Assembly: GCA_000092065.1 (NCBI GenBank)
Contig: CP000593.1
DNA length: 64,000 bases
Source: Ostreococcus lucimarinus
Taxonomy: Eukaryota
Strand: one strand, 5' to 3'
Position numbers and translations under genes: made by a program. Under the pieces are notes generated by a model. The model ran no database searches and was not told the origin of the DNA. It saw nothing but the letters and a program-made list of their open reading frames with translations. This document shows, piece after piece, positions 778 to 62,093 of this stretch; position 1 is the first letter of the stretch, and every line of letters begins with the position of its first letter.

Positions 778-1869
778 TTAAACGCCGAGGAGCGCGGAAT
801 CGAGCGGGGAGTACATCTCTGACAGTAAGACGTTGATGAATCCCGGGCAATGCGCGCCGTGATCGGTGACGAACACCGAGATCAGTTCCGCGGGTACGAA
901 TTCGAACGACGGGTTTATGACGACGGCGTCCGGATCGGCACCGCGCTCGCCGTAACCCAGTGCCGTCGACGGCGACCCGAAGCCGTAGACGCGGTCGAAC
1001 CCGGCTTCTTTTTGCGTCTTCGGTGAGATTGCGTACGAACCGGCGAGCATAAGCACGGGTACGGAGTGCGCTTTCGCGGCAAGAGCTATGTTATACGCCC
1101 CGCTATCGACGAGCGCGCTGCCATCGGCGAGCACGCCCCGCGCGCTCAACACGCACAGCTTGACGCTCGGCATCGTCGCGTACACCGCGCTATCGCAAAT
1201 CAAGCTCACGTCCCGCACCCCACGCTCGGCTAAACTCTTCGCCATCGCGTGTCCGTCGTATCTCGGCGCGCTCTCCGCGACGACGACGCTAAATCCACCC
1301 CCTCCCTCGCTCGCGGACCGTTTCTTATTCGCGTCTCTCAAAAACGCCTCCGCCAACCCGGTCCCCGCGCTCGCGTTCGACCCCATCGTCATCACCACGC
1401 ATCCATTCGTCACAAAATCCGAGCTTTGGCTCGCAATATTCGTCGACACCGTCTCCATTTCCTCGATCACCTCGTGTGCGGTATCGATGACATCCTTTTT
1501 CAATTTCTTCGTCGCCGCGCCGCCGCCGCCGCCGCCGCTCTCGCCGCCGCCGCCGCCGTCGCCCCTCTCGCTCGTCGCCCCCTCGTCCCGTATCACTCGC
1601 AGCACGCGCCGCGCCACGTTCCCGACCAGCAAGTGTTCCCGCTTCAGCACCGCCAGCGATCCACCGATCGCGCGCACGCTCGCGATGATTTCCTCGAGCG
1701 TCGCGCGACCGTCCGCCGTCGCCACGACCTGAATGAGCGTCTCCGCGACGCGTTTCGCGAGCACCGCCGGCGGTTTCGCGTCGTACGTCCCTCGCCGAAC
1801 GTCGTGCGACAAGTCCTCCACCGATCGCTGCGTCGCCGGCGTGAGCGCGGCGTCGCGCGCGGGCGGCAT
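778..1869 (-). CDS. Translation initiation factor eIF-2B subunit (IF-2B family, beta/delta-like)
   Basis: IF-2B family core is present: VVVAESAPRYDGHAMAKSLAERGV, VLSARGVLADGSALVDSGAYNIALAAKAHSVPVLMLAG, INPSFEFVPAELISVFVTD. The codons at 2037 and 1869 are both ATG. I prefer 1869 because the N-terminus then aligns with eIF2B-beta-like starts, and because 2037 lies only 10 bp from the divergent ATG at 2047. Confidence 0.75.
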   Translation of the reverse strand: MPPARDAALTPATQRSVEDLSHDVRRGTYDAKPPAVLAKRVAETLIQVVATADGRATLEEIIASVRAIGGSLAVLKREHLLVGNVARRVLRVIRDEGATSERGDGGGGGESGGGGGGAATKKLKKDVIDTAHEVIEEMETVSTNIASQSSDFVTNGCVVMTMGSNASAGTGLAEAFLRDANKKRSASEGGGGFSVVVAESAPRYDGHAMAKSLAERGVRDVSLICDSAVYATMPSVKLCVLSARGVLADGSALVDSGAYNIALAAKAHSVPVLMLAGSYAISPKTQKEAGFDRVYGFGSPSTALGYGERGADPDAVVINPSFEFVPAELISVFVTDHGAHCPGFINVLLSEMYSPLDSALLGV

Positions 1870-2046
1870 CGTCGTCGACGCGTCCTCGAACGGACGAGGC
1901 GACGCGCGACGAGGCGCGCGAACGCGGACGCGCGCGGGGTTCGCGAGACGAAAACGATCGCGAGGGCTTCGATCTCGCGCGCGCGCTCGAGACGTCGCGA
2001 CGACGCGTTGTGACGACGCGCCGGCTCTGCGCGTCATTGCGAGAAG

Positions 2047-3727
2047 ATGGCGTTCGCGCTCGGCGCGAGCGCGGAGGAATGGGCGATCGACGCGTGGATG
2101 CGGTTACCGTTGATCGCCTGGGCGAGTTCGTTCGTCGGGACGGTGCGTCGGGCGGTCGCGCGCGGCGCGCGCGCGGCGCGAACGCGATGGATGGTCGAGC
2201 GGGCGCGCGCGCGCGCGTTGAGAGCGACGCGAGACGCGTTCGGGCGCGCGAGACGGCGACGCGCGAGGCGCGGCGCGGTGACTGACGGGAGTTTCGAACG
2301 CGCGGTGGACGCAGCTCATGAATAAGCACGCGAAGACGCCGAAGATCACGGGATACTTGCTCGCCGGCGTGGCGTTTGGGCGACACGGTTTAGGCGCGTT
2401 GTCGGCGGCGGGATCTCGACGGTTATGGCTCGTCGATAACGGATGCCTGGCGTGCATCGGCGTCGCGGCTGGATCTGAGGTGGTGCTGAGTGAGGTGCGG
2501 AAGACGCTGCGGGTGACGATGGTGACCATCGCGAGCGTGGCGTGCTGCTGCTGGTGCGCGACGTTTGGCGCGTTCGACGCGATTTTCGCGCAGAGGGTGG
2601 AGTTTTTGCAAGGGCTGACGGAGCGACACGTCGCGGCGGTGGGATCTTTATTGGGGACGCTTTCGTTGGCGCGCTCGCCCGCGAGTGCGATGGCGGTGAT
2701 CAACGAGTGCGAGGCGAGCGGGCCGTATTGCGCGCACATTTTGAGCACGACGGTTTTGAAAGACGTTCTCGTCGTCGCGTTGTTCGCTATAAACGTCGAG
2801 CTCGTGGCGCTTTCGGGATTAGACTTCCACAATATCATATCAGATGCGGCGACGATGGCCTTGGGAGGTGAGATCGCGAGCAACACGACGCGCGATGTCG
2901 GCGCGAGCGCGGCGGCGAGAAGACTCTTGGTGAATTTGAAGCCCGCGACGCAATGGGAAACTTCGCATCCCATCACCAAGCTTTTGCAACCTATAGTGCG
3001 GGTGATCGGGGCCGCCATTGCGGGTATCATCGCAGGCGTCCTACTTGGACGCTTGCTCAAACCCACGTCCTTGGCGGCGCGTTGGAAAAACATTCGTGTC
3101 GGCTGCATCGTGTGCGGCGCCGCCGCCATCTTTGTGTCTAGCGAACATCTCGGATTGGAGCCTTTATTGGTGTGCGTCGCCGCCGGTCTCACCGCGGCAA
3201 ATCGCAAGCATACGAACGGCGCGCACGAGCGCGAGGAGTTACACGCCGCGATCGCGATCGTGACGCCAGCGGTAAATTTGCTCTTCTTCACCCTCGCCGG
3301 CGCGAGCCTGCGCCTGGAAAACGTGTACAACTCCATCGTCATCGCGGTCGGTCTCGTCATCGTTCGTCTTTTGGGGCTGTATTGTGCCACGGCAATATCT
3401 GCGCGCATACTCAAAGCACCGGCGGTGAGCGACATCACGGGCGAACGGCGCAAAAACATTGAATGGATGGGGCACGTCACCCAAGCCGGCGTCGCGCTCG
3501 GTTTGTCGCGCACCGTCGCCGCGAGATTTCCATACTGGGGCCCCGCGTTTTCGACGCTGGCCGTGTCCGTGATCGTCATCAACTTATTCATCGGTCCCGT
3601 GTTATTTCGCGCATCCATAGAACTCATGAACGAGTCGCACTCGACGCTCAACGCGGCGTTGGAGCGCATCGTCGCGACGCCCAAGCGCGCGGTCGAGGCG
3701 CCCGCGACCGGCTCTCCTTCCCTTTAG
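2047..3727 (+). CDS. Cation/H+ antiporter, CPA2 (Kef/KEA-like Na_H exchanger family), 2 exons: 2047..2142 and 2315..3727
   Basis: Polytopic membrane protein with the CPA signature KITGYLLAGVAFGRHGLG near the N-terminus. The ORF beginning at ATG 2318 lacks the first TM helix. Exon 1 (MAFALGASAEEWAIDAWMRLPLIAWASSFVGT) supplies it and joins in phase 0 through a GTGCGT...ACTGAC...CAG intron. Confidence 0.7.
2143..2314 (+). other. Predicted intron (172 nt) of the CPA2 antiporter
   Basis: Donor ACG|GTGCGT at 2143, ACTGAC at 2281-2286, acceptor CAG ending at 2314. Phase 0 on both sides. There is an in-frame stop if it is not spliced. Confidence 0.55.
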
Positions 3728-3838
3728 CACAGCGCGCCGCGCGCCTAGTCCATTTGTATCGAAAGTCTCCTTTCTTAGTGTATTACATTCGCATGATTCA
3801 TTCGCCGCTAAACTAAAATTAAACAGGCTCTCGCGACC

Positions 3839-4341
3839 CTATTCGAGCTCGAGTCGCTTCTCCACATCCTTCCAGAGTTTACCCTTATTCGAGCTGCGCG
3901 CGAACCGTCGACGAAAACCTCGGTCAATCCCCATTCGCATCATCGCGCGCGCGCGCGCGCGCCTCGCGCGCGTCGCGCGCGTCGCGTCGTTTCGCGTCGC
4001 GTCGTTTCGCGTCGCGTCGCTTCGACCCCTCACCTCTCCCACGCGCGATCGAATCCGTAGTTCAACGCCTTCTCCCCCGCGAGCGCCCCCGCGACGATCA
4101 CCCCGACGTACACCGCCGAATTCTGCGCGCGCGCGTTCGCGCCTCGTCAGTCCCCCCGTCCTCGCGCGCGTCGCGCGCCGCCCTCCCCCCTCGTCGTCGA
4201 GATCGCGCGCTCGATCGTCGCCGCCTCGCGCGCGCCGTCGCCCGCGCGCCGCCCGCGCGCCGTCGCCCGCGCGCGCCGTCGCGCCCGCGCGCGCTCGCGC
4301 GCACGCACCGACATGAACGTCTTGTAAAACGCGCCGAACAT
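3839..4341 (-). CDS. QCR9: Cytochrome bc1 complex subunit 9 (QCR9/UQCR10), 3 exons: 4341..4309, 4122..4034, 3893..3839
   Basis: The spliced product is 58 aa: MFGAFYKTFMSNSAVYVGVIVAGALAGEKALNYGFDRAWESSNKGKLWKDVEKRLELE. The FYKTF..N.AV.VG..AG helix and the NKGKLWKDV tail match yeast Qcr9 and human UQCR10. Splice phases are consistent. This gene is not represented in the ORF track. Confidence 0.8.
3894..4033 (-). other. QCR9 intron 2 (140 nt)
   Basis: Donor AG|GTGAGG, ATTGAC branch-like motif, acceptor CAG. Phase 2/1 recreates an AGC (Ser) codon. Confidence 0.7.
4123..4308 (-). other. QCR9 intron 1 (186 nt)
   Basis: Donor TCG|GTGCGT; ACTGAC (plus-strand gtcagt at 4146-4151) 24 nt before the acceptor CAG; phase 0. 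Confidence 0.75.
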
Positions 4342-4351
4342 CGTCGCGCGT

Positions 4352-4592
4352 CCGTCCGTCGATCGCGTCGCGATCTGCGCGCGCGCGCGTCGTCGCCGCC
4401 GATCGCTCGAACCTCGAGCCATCGATCGTTCGCGCAGATTTAACCGCATCGCGAGGTTCGATCGACGACGCCGTCCGTCGATCGCGCGTCGCGATCCGCG
4501 CGCGCGCGCGATCGTCGCCGCCGATCGCTCGAACCTCGAGCCATCGATCGACTCCACCGATTTCACCGCATCGCGAGGTTCGATCGACGACG
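4352..4592. repeat. Tandem duplication, 2 x ~120 bp, CGATCG-rich, in the QCR9/ANTH divergent promoter
   Basis: Copy A is 4352-4470 and copy B is 4471-4592. They share long identical blocks (ccgccgatcgctcgaacctcgagccatcgatcg, caccgcatcgcgaggttcgatcgacgacg) with a few indels. Confidence 0.85.
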
Positions 4593-4662
4593 CGCGCGCG
4601 GGTTCGCCGGCGCGCGGGCGCGCCCGCGCCGGCACAGACGCGCGCGGTCGCGTCGGCGCGCG

Positions 4663-6813
4663 ATGCCGCTCCGGTTGCAGAAAAAGGCGTCGCGCGTCGT
4701 GCGCGCGGTGGCGGAGGAGGTCCAGGTCGCGCGCGGCGTCGGCACGCGCACCGATAAGCGCGGGAACGCGAAGACGGCGCTGTGGGAGCGCGGCAAGGTG
4801 CGATCGAGCGGCGGATTGGCGCGTGTCTCGATCGGCGCGACGAGGATCGCGCGCGAACGCGCGACGCGAGGCGACGCGCGACGCGCGCGCGCGGAGACGC
4901 GAAGGGAAACCCGCGCGGGAGATTCGGGGAGACGCGCGAGAGACTGACGGGACGCGGACGCGACGCAGGCGAAACTCGCGGCGACGGCGGTGGAGAAGGA
5001 GTTCGCCGAGACGCAGTTGGCGTTTAGCAAGGCGACGAATTTCGATGACGTGCCGCCGAAGGAGAAGCACGTGCTGGCGCTGGTGCGCACGTGCGGAGGC
5101 GCGGGCGGAGGGAGCTCGAGGGATCGGGCGTTCGTGTTGGAGACGTTGGCGAGACAGGTGCGGAAGTGCGCGCCGTGGAGGACGATGCTGAAGACGCACG
5201 TGTTGCTGCACAGGTTGATGCGGGAGTGCGAGGGAGGGGGGTTTAAGGATGACTTCTTCAGGTTTTTGGAATTTTTATCTCGGAAAACGTACGGGCCGAA
5301 AGAACAGACGCTGTTTAACATTCGCTACTGGAAGGACGAGACCAACAAGGACGCGTACGAGTTGTCGGGGTGGACGCGCGCGTACGCGGCGTACCTCGAA
5401 GAGCTGTGCGCTTTGAATGAGTTCATCCCGAGCCTCGTAGGAAACGTGAGTGGCGCGGTGACGACGACGACAAACGGCGAGGCGCGAGCGGTGGTGGCGA
5501 ATCCGTTGAAAGATTGTGATTTCGCGACGTTGATCAAGGTTTTGCCCTTGGTGCAGACGCTCGTGCGACGCATCACGGATTGCGCGCCAACATCTACGAC
5601 GCTGCAGAAAAATGCCGTCTCGCGATACGCCGTCGGACTCGTCGCAAAGGATAGTTTCTTGGTGTATCGCGTCATGAACGAGGGCATCATAAACCTGGTG
5701 GACAAGTACTTTGAAACGAGCAAAGTCGAGGCGGAGAAAGGGTTGGTGATTTTCAAAAAGTACTTGACGCAAATCGAAGACTTGCAACGATTTTACGACA
5801 CGTGCGAAGCGTGCGCGGCGGTGGAAAACGCAGTCGTCAAGCTTGAAGCACCCCCTGCGACGTTTTTGAAGAGCATGGAAGAGTACTTCGAATCGGCGCC
5901 TCGCGAAGGCTTGCCTCTTCGCGAGCGGCGGTTGGGCGCGACATCTTCGACGACGGCGAACAATGCACGAGCGAATGCGGTGGGGTCGACAATGTTGGCG
6001 ATCGACGTCCCCGCCAACAACGCGGACTTTATCAGTACCACTGCTGCGCTACCGCCGGTGGAGCCGTTGAATGCGCTCGATGCGCTCAGTCAGCTTGATT
6101 TAGGTACGCCGAGCCCAACGAGCAAAGACGATGTTTTTAGCTCAAACGCGCTGCCCGCGCCGACGCAACCGCCGGCGTTAGCGCCGGTCGCGCCCGCAGC
6201 TTCGAGCAGTACAAGCGCACTTGATTCTTTCTCCGAGTCAATCGCTCCGGCGGTGCCGACGGAACCCTCTGCGGTGGCGTACAACCCATTCGGAGCGAAC
6301 CCATACGGCGGCGCCCCGCAAATGGTGCCGGCGGCTCCGCAAACGGCGCCGGCGCCCCAAGCAAAATCGCCGAGAAGCACGAACCCATTCGGAAATAACC
6401 CGTTCGGTACACCACAGCCTCAAAGTTTGGACAAGAGCGCACTCAATGACTTATACGCGCAAGCTCCAGCGTCACCCAGGAGTGGCCATGGCATGAGTTC
6501 CATGGCACCGCCGCAACACATCAATCCGAGCTTTATGCAAGCGCCGCCCAACAGCGCCTTGCAGCGGCAGCAAGTTGGCGCACCTCAGCTAGCGCTACCG
6601 ATGGCTGGTGTGCAGTATCCACAACAATATCCGCAGATGGCGTTCCCCCAGCACCATCAGCAGATGGGATACCCGCAGCAGCATCCGCAGATGGGATATC
6701 CCCAGCGCCCGGCGGCTGAACCACCGTTGCACCCGGCGTTCGCCAACCCTCACCAAGGCGGCAGTCCAAGTTCTAGCGCTCCATCACCGCAGAACTCCGG
6801 CAGTTTGATTTGA
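4663..6813 (+). CDS. ANTH-domain clathrin assembly protein (AP180/PICALM-like); likely 2 exons: 4663..4797 and 4969..6813
   Basis: ANTH core is present: SKATNFDDVPPKEKHVLALV...WRTMLKTHVLLHRLMREC...LSGWTRAYAAYLEE. The C-terminal half is P/Q/A-rich with NPF motifs (NPFGANPYG, NPFGNNPFG). The ORF-track start at 4990 is GTG, and the first in-frame ATG would delete part of the ANTH domain. An upstream exon starting at ATG 4663 joins in phase 0. Confidence 0.75.
4798..4968 (+). other. Predicted intron (171 nt) of the ANTH gene
   Basis: Donor AAG|GTGCGA at 4798, ACTGAC at 4943-4948, acceptor CAG ending at 4968. There is an in-frame TGA inside. An alternative earlier donor (GAG|GTCCAG) cannot be excluded. 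Confidence 0.45.
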
Positions 6814-6898: not shown

Positions 6899-8368
6899 AT
6901 GTCGCTCGCCGTCCATCTCTCATCCACCCGCACGCGCGGCGCGACGCCGTTCGCGCGCGTCAATCGCGCAAAACAGTCGCGCGTCGCATACCAGCGCGTC
7001 TCCACGCGCGCATCGCGACGCGTCGCGACGCTAGTTCGCGTTGTCCCGCTCAAAAAGTGCTGCGCTTTTTCGCAGTCATCCTCGCGCCGTTCCGCTACGC
7101 GCGCGCGCGCGACGGCCGCCGCGCCGCGCGACGCCGACGATGCGAATAAAATCATCCTCGCCCTCGGCGTGGCCATGCTGCTCGCGAGCGCGGACCGAAC
7201 GATTTTCGCCGCCGCGGCGCTGAGCCTGAAGGCGGAGCTGGGCATGTCCATGAAGGATTTGGCGCTCGCGCAGAGCGCGTTTCTGTGGGGATACGGCGTC
7301 ACGCAGCTCGCGGCGGGCGCGTCGAGCGATCGATTCGGTGGCGCGAAGGTGTTGCTCGGTGGGCTGTGCGTGTGGTCGATCGCGGTGGCGGTGACGCCGC
7401 TGAGCTCGATGACGACGGCGCCGGTGCTCGCAGTCGTGGCGGCGCGATTTTTGTTCGGCGCGGCGAGCGGATGCGCGCTACCGGCGTCCGCAGCGGCGGT
7501 TGCGGCGCACGTGCCGGCGGAGCGACGGTCGGGCGCGTTGTCAACGATATTTGCGCTGTTTAACATTGGTTCGGCGTTCGGGCTCGCGGCGGCTGGAAGT
7601 TTGATCACGCAGTTTGGGTGGCGAGCGATTTTCTACGGCTTCGGCGCGTTTGGCGCGGCGTGGGCCGTCGCCGCCTACGCCGCAATGCCGCAGAGCGTGA
7701 AAACTTTCGTCCCTAGGGTACCGAAGGTGAGCGAGTTGAAGGATGAAAACGGCGAGCAAATGACCGAGTTGTCGTCCGAAGTTGCGACGCAGCTCGTTGC
7801 GCTGTTGTGGTGTCACGTCGTCGTGAACTGGGGGTTCATGATTTTACAGTCATGGCTGCCGGTGTATCTCGCGAACGACTTGGGAATGTCCATCGCGAGC
7901 TCTGGGATCCTCGGCGCTTTACCGTGGGTATTCACCGCGTTCATGTCATTTAGCTCGGGACAGGTGGCGGATAAGTTGATTAGTCGAGGGATGGAGCGAT
8001 GGAAAGTGCGTCGATTGGCGATGAACGTCGCCACCATCGGTCCCGCCCTGGGATTATTCGCGTTGAAGTACACCACCACCGCGAGCGTCGCGTTGGCGTG
8101 CATCGTCGCCACGCTCGGTCTTCAAGCCGTCGCGGTTGCGGGGTATCACAGTTACCTTCAGGACGTCGCTCCGTCTCGCGCGGGCGCTATTCTCGGTTTC
8201 ACAAACACGGTCGGCGTCGTCGGTTCAATCGTCGCCAACATGGTGACTGGCGCGAGCGTCGAGGCGACGGGGTCGTTTCAAGCGACATTTTTGTACACCG
8301 CGGCGATGTACGCGAGCTCTTGCTTTGTTTGGAATGCATTCTTGAAGGGTGAGCAGTTGTTTCCGTAA
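6899..8368 (+). CDS. Major facilitator superfamily transporter, PHT4/ANTR (SLC17-like anion transporter) type, transit-peptide-like N-terminus
   Basis: ATG at 6899 and about 12 predicted TM helices. The motif region ADRTIFAAAALSLKAELGMSMKDLALAQSAFLWGYGVTQLAAGASSDRFGGAKVLLGGLCVWS is typical of SLC17/PHT4-type MFS proteins. Confidence 0.7.
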   Translation: MSLAVHLSSTRTRGATPFARVNRAKQSRVAYQRVSTRASRRVATLVRVVPLKKCCAFSQSSSRRSATRARATAAAPRDADDANKIILALGVAMLLASADRTIFAAAALSLKAELGMSMKDLALAQSAFLWGYGVTQLAAGASSDRFGGAKVLLGGLCVWSIAVAVTPLSSMTTAPVLAVVAARFLFGAASGCALPASAAAVAAHVPAERRSGALSTIFALFNIGSAFGLAAAGSLITQFGWRAIFYGFGAFGAAWAVAAYAAMPQSVKTFVPRVPKVSELKDENGEQMTELSSEVATQLVALLWCHVVVNWGFMILQSWLPVYLANDLGMSIASSGILGALPWVFTAFMSFSSGQVADKLISRGMERWKVRRLAMNVATIGPALGLFALKYTTTASVALACIVATLGLQAVAVAGYHSYLQDVAPSRAGAILGFTNTVGVVGSIVANMVTGASVEATGSFQATFLYTAAMYASSCFVWNAFLKGEQLFP

Positions 8369-61644: not shown

Positions 61645-62093
61645 CTACACCGCCGCGCGCGCGTCAGTCGCGTCCTTCATCCTCGTCTCGCGATTCCATC
61701 GCGGCGTCTCGACGCCGACGCCGCGTCCCGCGCGAATCCTCGCCTCGCACCTGCAGCATCGTCCGCGACGTCCCGAGCCCTTCCCGCGCGCGCGCCACTC
61801 GCGTCTTCGTCCCACCGCCGCGCTTTCGTCAGTCTTTCCCTTCGTCGTCGCGCGCCGTCCCGTTCGAATCGTCCTTCGTCGCGTCGCGTCGCTTTCGAGA
61901 TACGAAGCGTCGTTCGGTCCCATCGTTCGCGTCGTTCGCACCATCGCGCACGCCGCGACGACCGCGTCGCGCACGCGCGCCGCGCCGCGCGTCGTTCGTC
62001 GTCGCGTCGCTCTCGCGTCGCGTCGCATCGTTTCGTCGTTCCCCGTCGTCGCGATGTGTCGTCCATCGTCCGTCCGTCATCCATTCACTCATC

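Follow-up and report, generated by a model that had tools for sequence, protein, structure and literature searches.

A three-exon gene for complex III subunit 9 (QCR9) in Ostreococcus lucimarinus and its lineage-specific second intron

In this work we asked whether a short interval of DNA from the green picoalga Ostreococcus lucimarinus, which a six-frame list of open reading frames covers with an arginine-rich frame, holds a gene for subunit 9 of complex III, and where the second intron of such a gene could have come from. Complex III is the mitochondrial ubiquinol-cytochrome c reductase, or cytochrome bc1 complex, and its subunit 9 is known as Qcr9 in yeast, QCR9 in plants and UQCR10 in mammals. 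The interval lies in a 64-kb stretch of DNA with 62% GC, the whole of which we call the window. A first-pass annotation, made from the letters of the sequence, had joined three minus-strand segments, 4341..4309, 4122..4034 and 3893..3839, into a QCR9 gene. When we translated and joined these segments, the exons proved correct to the base: they make up 177 nt, that is 58 codons followed by TAG, encode the 58-aa product MFGAFYKTFMSNSAVYVGVIVAGALAGEKALNYGFDRAWESSNKGKLWKDVEKRLELE and are separated by two introns of the GT..AG type. From its sequence the interval is, with high confidence, a real three-exon nuclear gene for QCR9/UQCR10 of O. lucimarinus, from which two introns are spliced out. Its parts are as follows.

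4309..4341, minus strand: exon 1, ATG plus 10 codons (MFGAFYKTFMS), ending at the donor ATGTCG/GTGCGT (the slash marks the splice site)
4123..4308, minus strand: intron 1, 186 nt, phase 0, GT..AG, CG-rich and of low complexity
4145..4152, minus strand: branch-point motif of intron 1, GACTGACG, ending 22 nt before the 3' splice site
4034..4122, minus strand: exon 2, 89 nt, encoding NSAVYVGVIVAGALAGEKALNYGFDRAWE plus the AG of a split Ser codon and including the hydrophobic helix
3894..4033, minus strand: intron 2, 140 nt, phase 2 (after nt 122 of the coding sequence), GTGAGG..CAG, with a low-complexity core of (GACGCG/GC)n
within 3894..4033, minus strand: the unique 3' 50 nt of intron 2, GATGATGCGAATGGGGATTGACCGAGGTTTTCGTCGACGGTTCGCGCGCAG
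3922..3929, minus strand: candidate branch site of intron 2, GATTGACC, non-canonical, matching GACTGACG at 6 of 8 positions and ending 28 nt before the 3' splice site
3839..3893, minus strand: exon 3, C plus SNKGKLWKDVEKRLELE plus TAG, with the stop codon at 3841..3839
3783..3787, minus strand: TGTAA, 52 nt 3' of the QCR9 stop codon, also present 3' of the stop in O. tauri and in contig L004

The donors of the two introns are GTGCGT and GTGAGG, respectively, both acceptors are CAG, and the borders read ATGTCG/GTGCGT...GCGCAG/AATTCG for intron 1 and GGAGAG/GTGAGG...GCGCAG/CTCGAA for intron 2. O. tauri and two metagenomic Ostreococcus lineages have the same exon 1 with the same GTGCGT donor. TGTAA serves as the poly(A) signal in Chlamydomonas and other chlorophytes, and the copy behind the QCR9 stop is probably a green-algal polyadenylation signal of this kind. 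The arginine-rich "junk" frame said to overlie the gene does exist: it runs over 4147..5211 on the minus strand, is 354 aa long with 28% Arg, takes in exon 1 in frame and then reads on into intron 1 as ...MSVRARERARARRR.

The first-pass annotation had recognized the family by an N-terminal FYKTF, a single hydrophobic helix and a C-terminal NKGKLWKDV box, and the assignment to QCR9/UQCR10, the exon coordinates, the helix and the box were all borne out by Pfam, by sequence matches to PDB chains and by the orthologues. Against PF05365 (UCR_UQCRX_QCR9), the profile it had suggested running on the spliced product, the protein scored 72.8 bits (gathering threshold 27 bits; E 2.1e-20) over profile positions 2-52 of 53, and this was the only Pfam family matched. 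In a search against all PDB chains, 37 distinct sequences were matched and every one of the 37 is named as subunit 9 of complex III or cytochrome bc1. The best matches were 8zno_J (E 1.6e-11), Arabidopsis 8bel_I (3.4e-11) and yeast 4pd4_I (7.3e-11); by group, the E values ranged from 1.6e-11 to 5.7e-11 for plants and from 7e-11 to 3e-10 for yeast Qcr9, and were about 4e-06 for bovine and chicken UQCR10. The plant and yeast chains align over residues 2-55 of the product. Saccharomyces cerevisiae Qcr9 (4pd4_I, 1kyo_I and others; E 7e-11) has a similar length and shares with the algal protein the YKTF motif, an AGA helix core and NKGKLWKDV, whereas the linker between helix and box is divergent; the yeast sequence given in the first-pass annotation agrees with 4pd4_I, which reads FSSLYKTFFKRNAVFVGTIFAGAF...ENHNKGKLWKDVKARI. 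Land-plant QCR9 (Arabidopsis At3g52730 type; 8bel_I, 7jrg_J; E 3e-11) and mammalian UQCR10 (bovine 1be3_J; E 4e-06) belong to the same Pfam family and have the same single-helix architecture, the land-plant proteins differing from that of O. lucimarinus by an N-terminal extension of about 11 aa. Residues 13-27, SAVYVGVIVAGALAG, are the sole strongly hydrophobic stretch of the product (mean Kyte-Doolittle hydropathy 1.93) and align with the helix region of the solved chains. The size and architecture, 58 aa with one hydrophobic segment after an N-terminal YK motif, are typical of QCR9, for which about 55-75 aa is usual. A TBLASTN search, also proposed earlier, found exon 2 alone with E 1e-16 and no second QCR9 copy in the 64-kb window, the product matching these three exons only.

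The analysis established the exon structure, family membership, orthology with synteny, purifying selection and prior annotation; from the family we infer that the transcript is spliced in O. lucimarinus, how the protein lies in the membrane and what it does in the complex. QCR9 would be transcribed from the minus strand, its two GT..AG introns would be spliced out and the 58-aa protein would be made without a cleavable presequence. By analogy with its relatives, it may cross the mitochondrial inner membrane once, with a helix (about residues 13-30) that would lie next to those of the Rieske protein and cytochrome c1 in the bc1 dimer, and it may stabilise the assembly of the Rieske Fe-S protein. 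This placement and the Rieske Fe-S role of subunit 9 are known from yeast genetics and from structures of the yeast and bovine complexes.

Is the gene new? It had been described as hidden, and this is true of the prokaryote-style six-frame ORF list only; in public eukaryotic annotation it is present, as the product is identical, from the first residue to the last (58 of 58 aa), to a protein of O. lucimarinus CCE9901 deposited as XP_001421071.1 / ABO99364.1 and as UniProt A4S6C9 (UniRef100_A4S6C9). With no difference at the protein level, this is the same gene. The protein is called a "predicted protein" at NCBI and "Complex III subunit 9" in UniRef, and it sits on a 528,469-bp record; the match was made at the level of the product. 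The QCR9 gene is thus already known through its exact product in GenBank/RefSeq and UniProt. An annotated QCR9 elsewhere in the genome had been named as something that would speak against the locus, and this does not apply, since the annotated QCR9 has exactly this product. With the product already deposited, the finding has little consequence for the annotation of the genome. It does carry a caution, namely that in GC-rich picoeukaryote DNA six-frame ORF lists yield long Arg/Ala-rich artefacts and miss very short genes with several exons. QCR9 is an ordinary housekeeping gene, and what remains new about it is the lineage-specific intron 2.

Intron 2 splits codon 41 (AG/C, phase 2) and is known only from DNA of the O. 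lucimarinus type, including all eight environmental contigs of that type, which were found by one exact metagenome search with the last 23 nt of exon 2. These contigs all enter the intron at the same donor, GTGAGGGGTCGA. In the seven that span it the intron is 140, 133 or 122 nt long, and the remaining one (L024) ends inside it; the 7-nt difference among the variants is no multiple of three, and none of the spanning variants has lost the GT, the TTGAC or the CAG. Intron 2 is missing from six other Ostreococcus-like lineages, namely O. tauri, L004-7, L008-11, L012-14, L015 and L016, in the last five of which prokaryote-style ORFs run uninterrupted from exon 2 into exon 3, and it is also absent from Bathycoccus and from an intronless chlorophyte homologue (L027).

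Could the O. lucimarinus protein simply end within this intron? Retention would place an in-frame TGA, contained in GTGAGG, directly after the donor and would give a truncated two-exon product of 41 aa ending in ...DRAWER, with exon 3 left as a relic. Such a product would suit an intron that is unique to the O. lucimarinus lineage and whose candidate branch site, GATTGACC, differs from the canonical GACTGACG, and the search with the end of exon 2 returned no spliced O. lucimarinus contig, all eight matches being unspliced genomic DNA. However, the best-conserved box of the family, NKGKLW, lies in exon 3; it is lost on retention and comes into frame only once the 140 nt are removed, and we take the TGA and the loss of this box to mean that the intron is real and needed. 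The variants point the same way. Between the window and variant contig L021 the three exons (177 nt in the window) differ by 3 substitutions and no gap columns, whereas the two introns (326 nt in the window) differ by 37 substitutions and 24 gap columns. In exon 3 there is one change, a synonymous one, against 13 substitutions and 18 gap columns in intron 2. The L021 protein differs from the window product at F2Y and A26V. Besides, the GT, TTGAC and CAG signals have been kept throughout and exon 3 is used in the public gene model, so that we regard truncation as improbable. The splicing of intron 2 rests on the logic of the reading frame, on the conservation of exon 3 and on the existing JGI/NCBI gene model.

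The orthologues bear on whether the locus is the working copy. The O. tauri "Cytochrome b-c1 complex subunit 9" (XP_003082573.1, Q00X81) has 58 aa and 84% identity and shares with O. lucimarinus the length, the five-gene neighbourhood, and the site, donor and branch motif of intron 1, but it is a two-exon gene without intron 2. Its neighbours on either side are a Na/H exchanger gene and an ANTH-domain gene, followed outwards by IF-2B and MFS_1 genes; the window has an IF-2B-like gene at 778..2037, the exchanger at 2318..3727, QCR9, an ANTH-like gene at 4990..6813 and an MFS gene at 6899..8368, and the five families IF-2B / Na_H_Exchanger / QCR9 / ANTH / MFS_1 are therefore syntenic between the two. 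The adjacency of QCR9 and the exchanger is kept in metagenomic contigs of at least four further Ostreococcus-like lineages, and that of ANTH and QCR9 in Bathycoccus prasinos. Pairwise dN/dS among O. lucimarinus, O. tauri, L004 and L008 was 0.10-0.17, with dS of 0.8-1.4, which indicates that the sequence has been under strong purifying selection. It could be argued that the copy at this locus is a pseudogene, decaying or unexpressed, and that a working QCR9 lies elsewhere, all the more as our check for a second copy covered 64 kb of the genome. This we consider even less probable than truncation: the start, stop, reading frame and splice signals are all intact, the dN/dS values are low, the locus corresponds in orthologous position, by synteny, to the one QCR9 found in each of O. 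tauri and Bathycoccus, and the protein searches returned a single O. lucimarinus protein of the family. Finally, the splice sites were picked by eye in GC-rich DNA with many long open frames, but a chance resemblance arising from free choice of exons is practically excluded by the Pfam E value of 2e-20, by that of exon 2 alone and by the identity with a deposited protein.

Among the QCR9 ORFs recovered, the proteins P0015 and P0016, from ENA metagenome contigs of 17.5 and 31 kb, carry ...GEKAIDTGSIGVGRANAGKLW... in place of ...GEKAINYGFDRAWERANAGKLW... This pattern resembles a short compensated frameshift, due either to an error of assembly or to an allele that is damaged.

Where did intron 2 come from? 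Most simply, and probably, it was gained recently on the branch of O. lucimarinus. The fuller reading, which we think likely, is that of a recently gained spliceosomal intron, fixed in O. lucimarinus (clade A-type) after its split from the other Ostreococcus, made of CG-rich low-complexity DNA with no recognisable introner and with a branch site that is still sub-optimal. The best candidate for this site is GATTGACC at 3929..3922, chosen by its position and by the YTRAY consensus, of which it appears to be a weak version. The adjacent Na/H exchanger (64-77% identity) gave an unrooted neighbour-joining tree of star-like shape, which neither dates the gain nor separates gain from loss of intron 2. 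If the gain is real, a tiny housekeeping gene offers a clean, datable case of a single intron gained in an intron-poor and highly compacted genome. For studies of intron gain in the Mamiellales, intron 2 would be a modest but clean data point, with a known ancestral state, population variants at hand and no introner signature in the window.

Two other origins of intron 2 were considered and set aside. Introner elements are introns that resemble transposons and recur in repeated copies in Micromonas and other algae. As BLAST queries against the 64-kb window, both introns gave only low-complexity, CG-rich matches; those of intron 2 had 75-86% identity (query positions 9-104), and no copies of its unique 3' third were found there. 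The best match, 62030..61935, lies in non-coding DNA and is a simple tract of the GACGCG type. Nor do the borders show a target-site duplication: in GGGAGAG/GTGAGG...GCGCAG/CTCGAA the end of the upstream exon and the end of the intron have only AG in common. An introner origin found no support within the 64 kb covered. An ancestral intron was rejected since Bathycoccus lacks it and since the introns of Capsella rubella QCR9 stand at other codons and in another phase: they follow codons 40 and 56 in phase 0, equivalent to codons 29 and 45 in O. lucimarinus, neither of which is an Ostreococcus intron site. The yeast QCR9 gene has one intron, near its 5' end.

Intron 1, by comparison, is present in all Ostreococcus-type lineages compared, after the same codon (...FMS/NS...), in phase 0 and with the donor GTGCGT. 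Its length is 131 nt in O. tauri as against 186 nt in O. lucimarinus, 190-202 nt in L008-11 and 221 nt in L004-7. The motif GACTGACG stands 20-30 nt before its acceptor in all lineages, O. tauri and L008 included, but L004, which has GACTAACG. For canonical Ostreococcus introns this motif has been reported as the extended branch point (PMC3879977, which cites Irimia and Roy 2008). Throughout the 64 kb of the window it occurs 12 times on both strands, against about 2.5 occurrences expected from base composition, and it could serve to flag further short introns missed by ORF lists. The boundaries of intron 1 are confirmed by a contig of a sister lineage, L003 (JGI Ga0182095_1344768), which is 98.7-99.5% identical to L004 over 4.4 kb and three genes and from which exactly the 221-nt QCR9 intron is missing (L003 2476..2655 versus L004 2753..3153), this being the sole large difference. 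L003 either was assembled from RNA, with neighbouring genes merged, or represents a natural allele with precise intron loss, and the confirmation holds under either origin. In Bathycoccus prasinos (L025 1501..1916, L026 1501..1903) the only QCR9 intron lies one codon upstream, after codon 10 (FM/SN) instead of codon 11, with both introns in phase 0; the offset could reflect a 3-nt intron slide or independent events.

The region upstream of QCR9 showed some further features. In the divergent promoter region that QCR9 has in common with the ANTH-domain gene, the window carries a 122-bp unit twice in tandem (4352..4593, 91% match), with about 10 bp between the repeat and the QCR9 ATG downstream of it. 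O. tauri has a 109-bp unit twice in tandem at the same place (L001 4713..4931) and variant L021 a 111-bp unit twice; no tandem repeat was found upstream of QCR9 in L004 and L008. We considered a shared promoter repeat and rejected it, the units of O. tauri and O. lucimarinus having no detectable sequence similarity. The ANTH-domain ORF (4990..6813, plus strand) begins with GTG in the ORF list, and the annotations of O. tauri differ on the 5' end of this gene, one giving 525 aa plus a separate 83-aa gene and the other 640 aa. The true 5' exon or start of the ANTH gene may lie in 4600..4990, near the tandem repeat.
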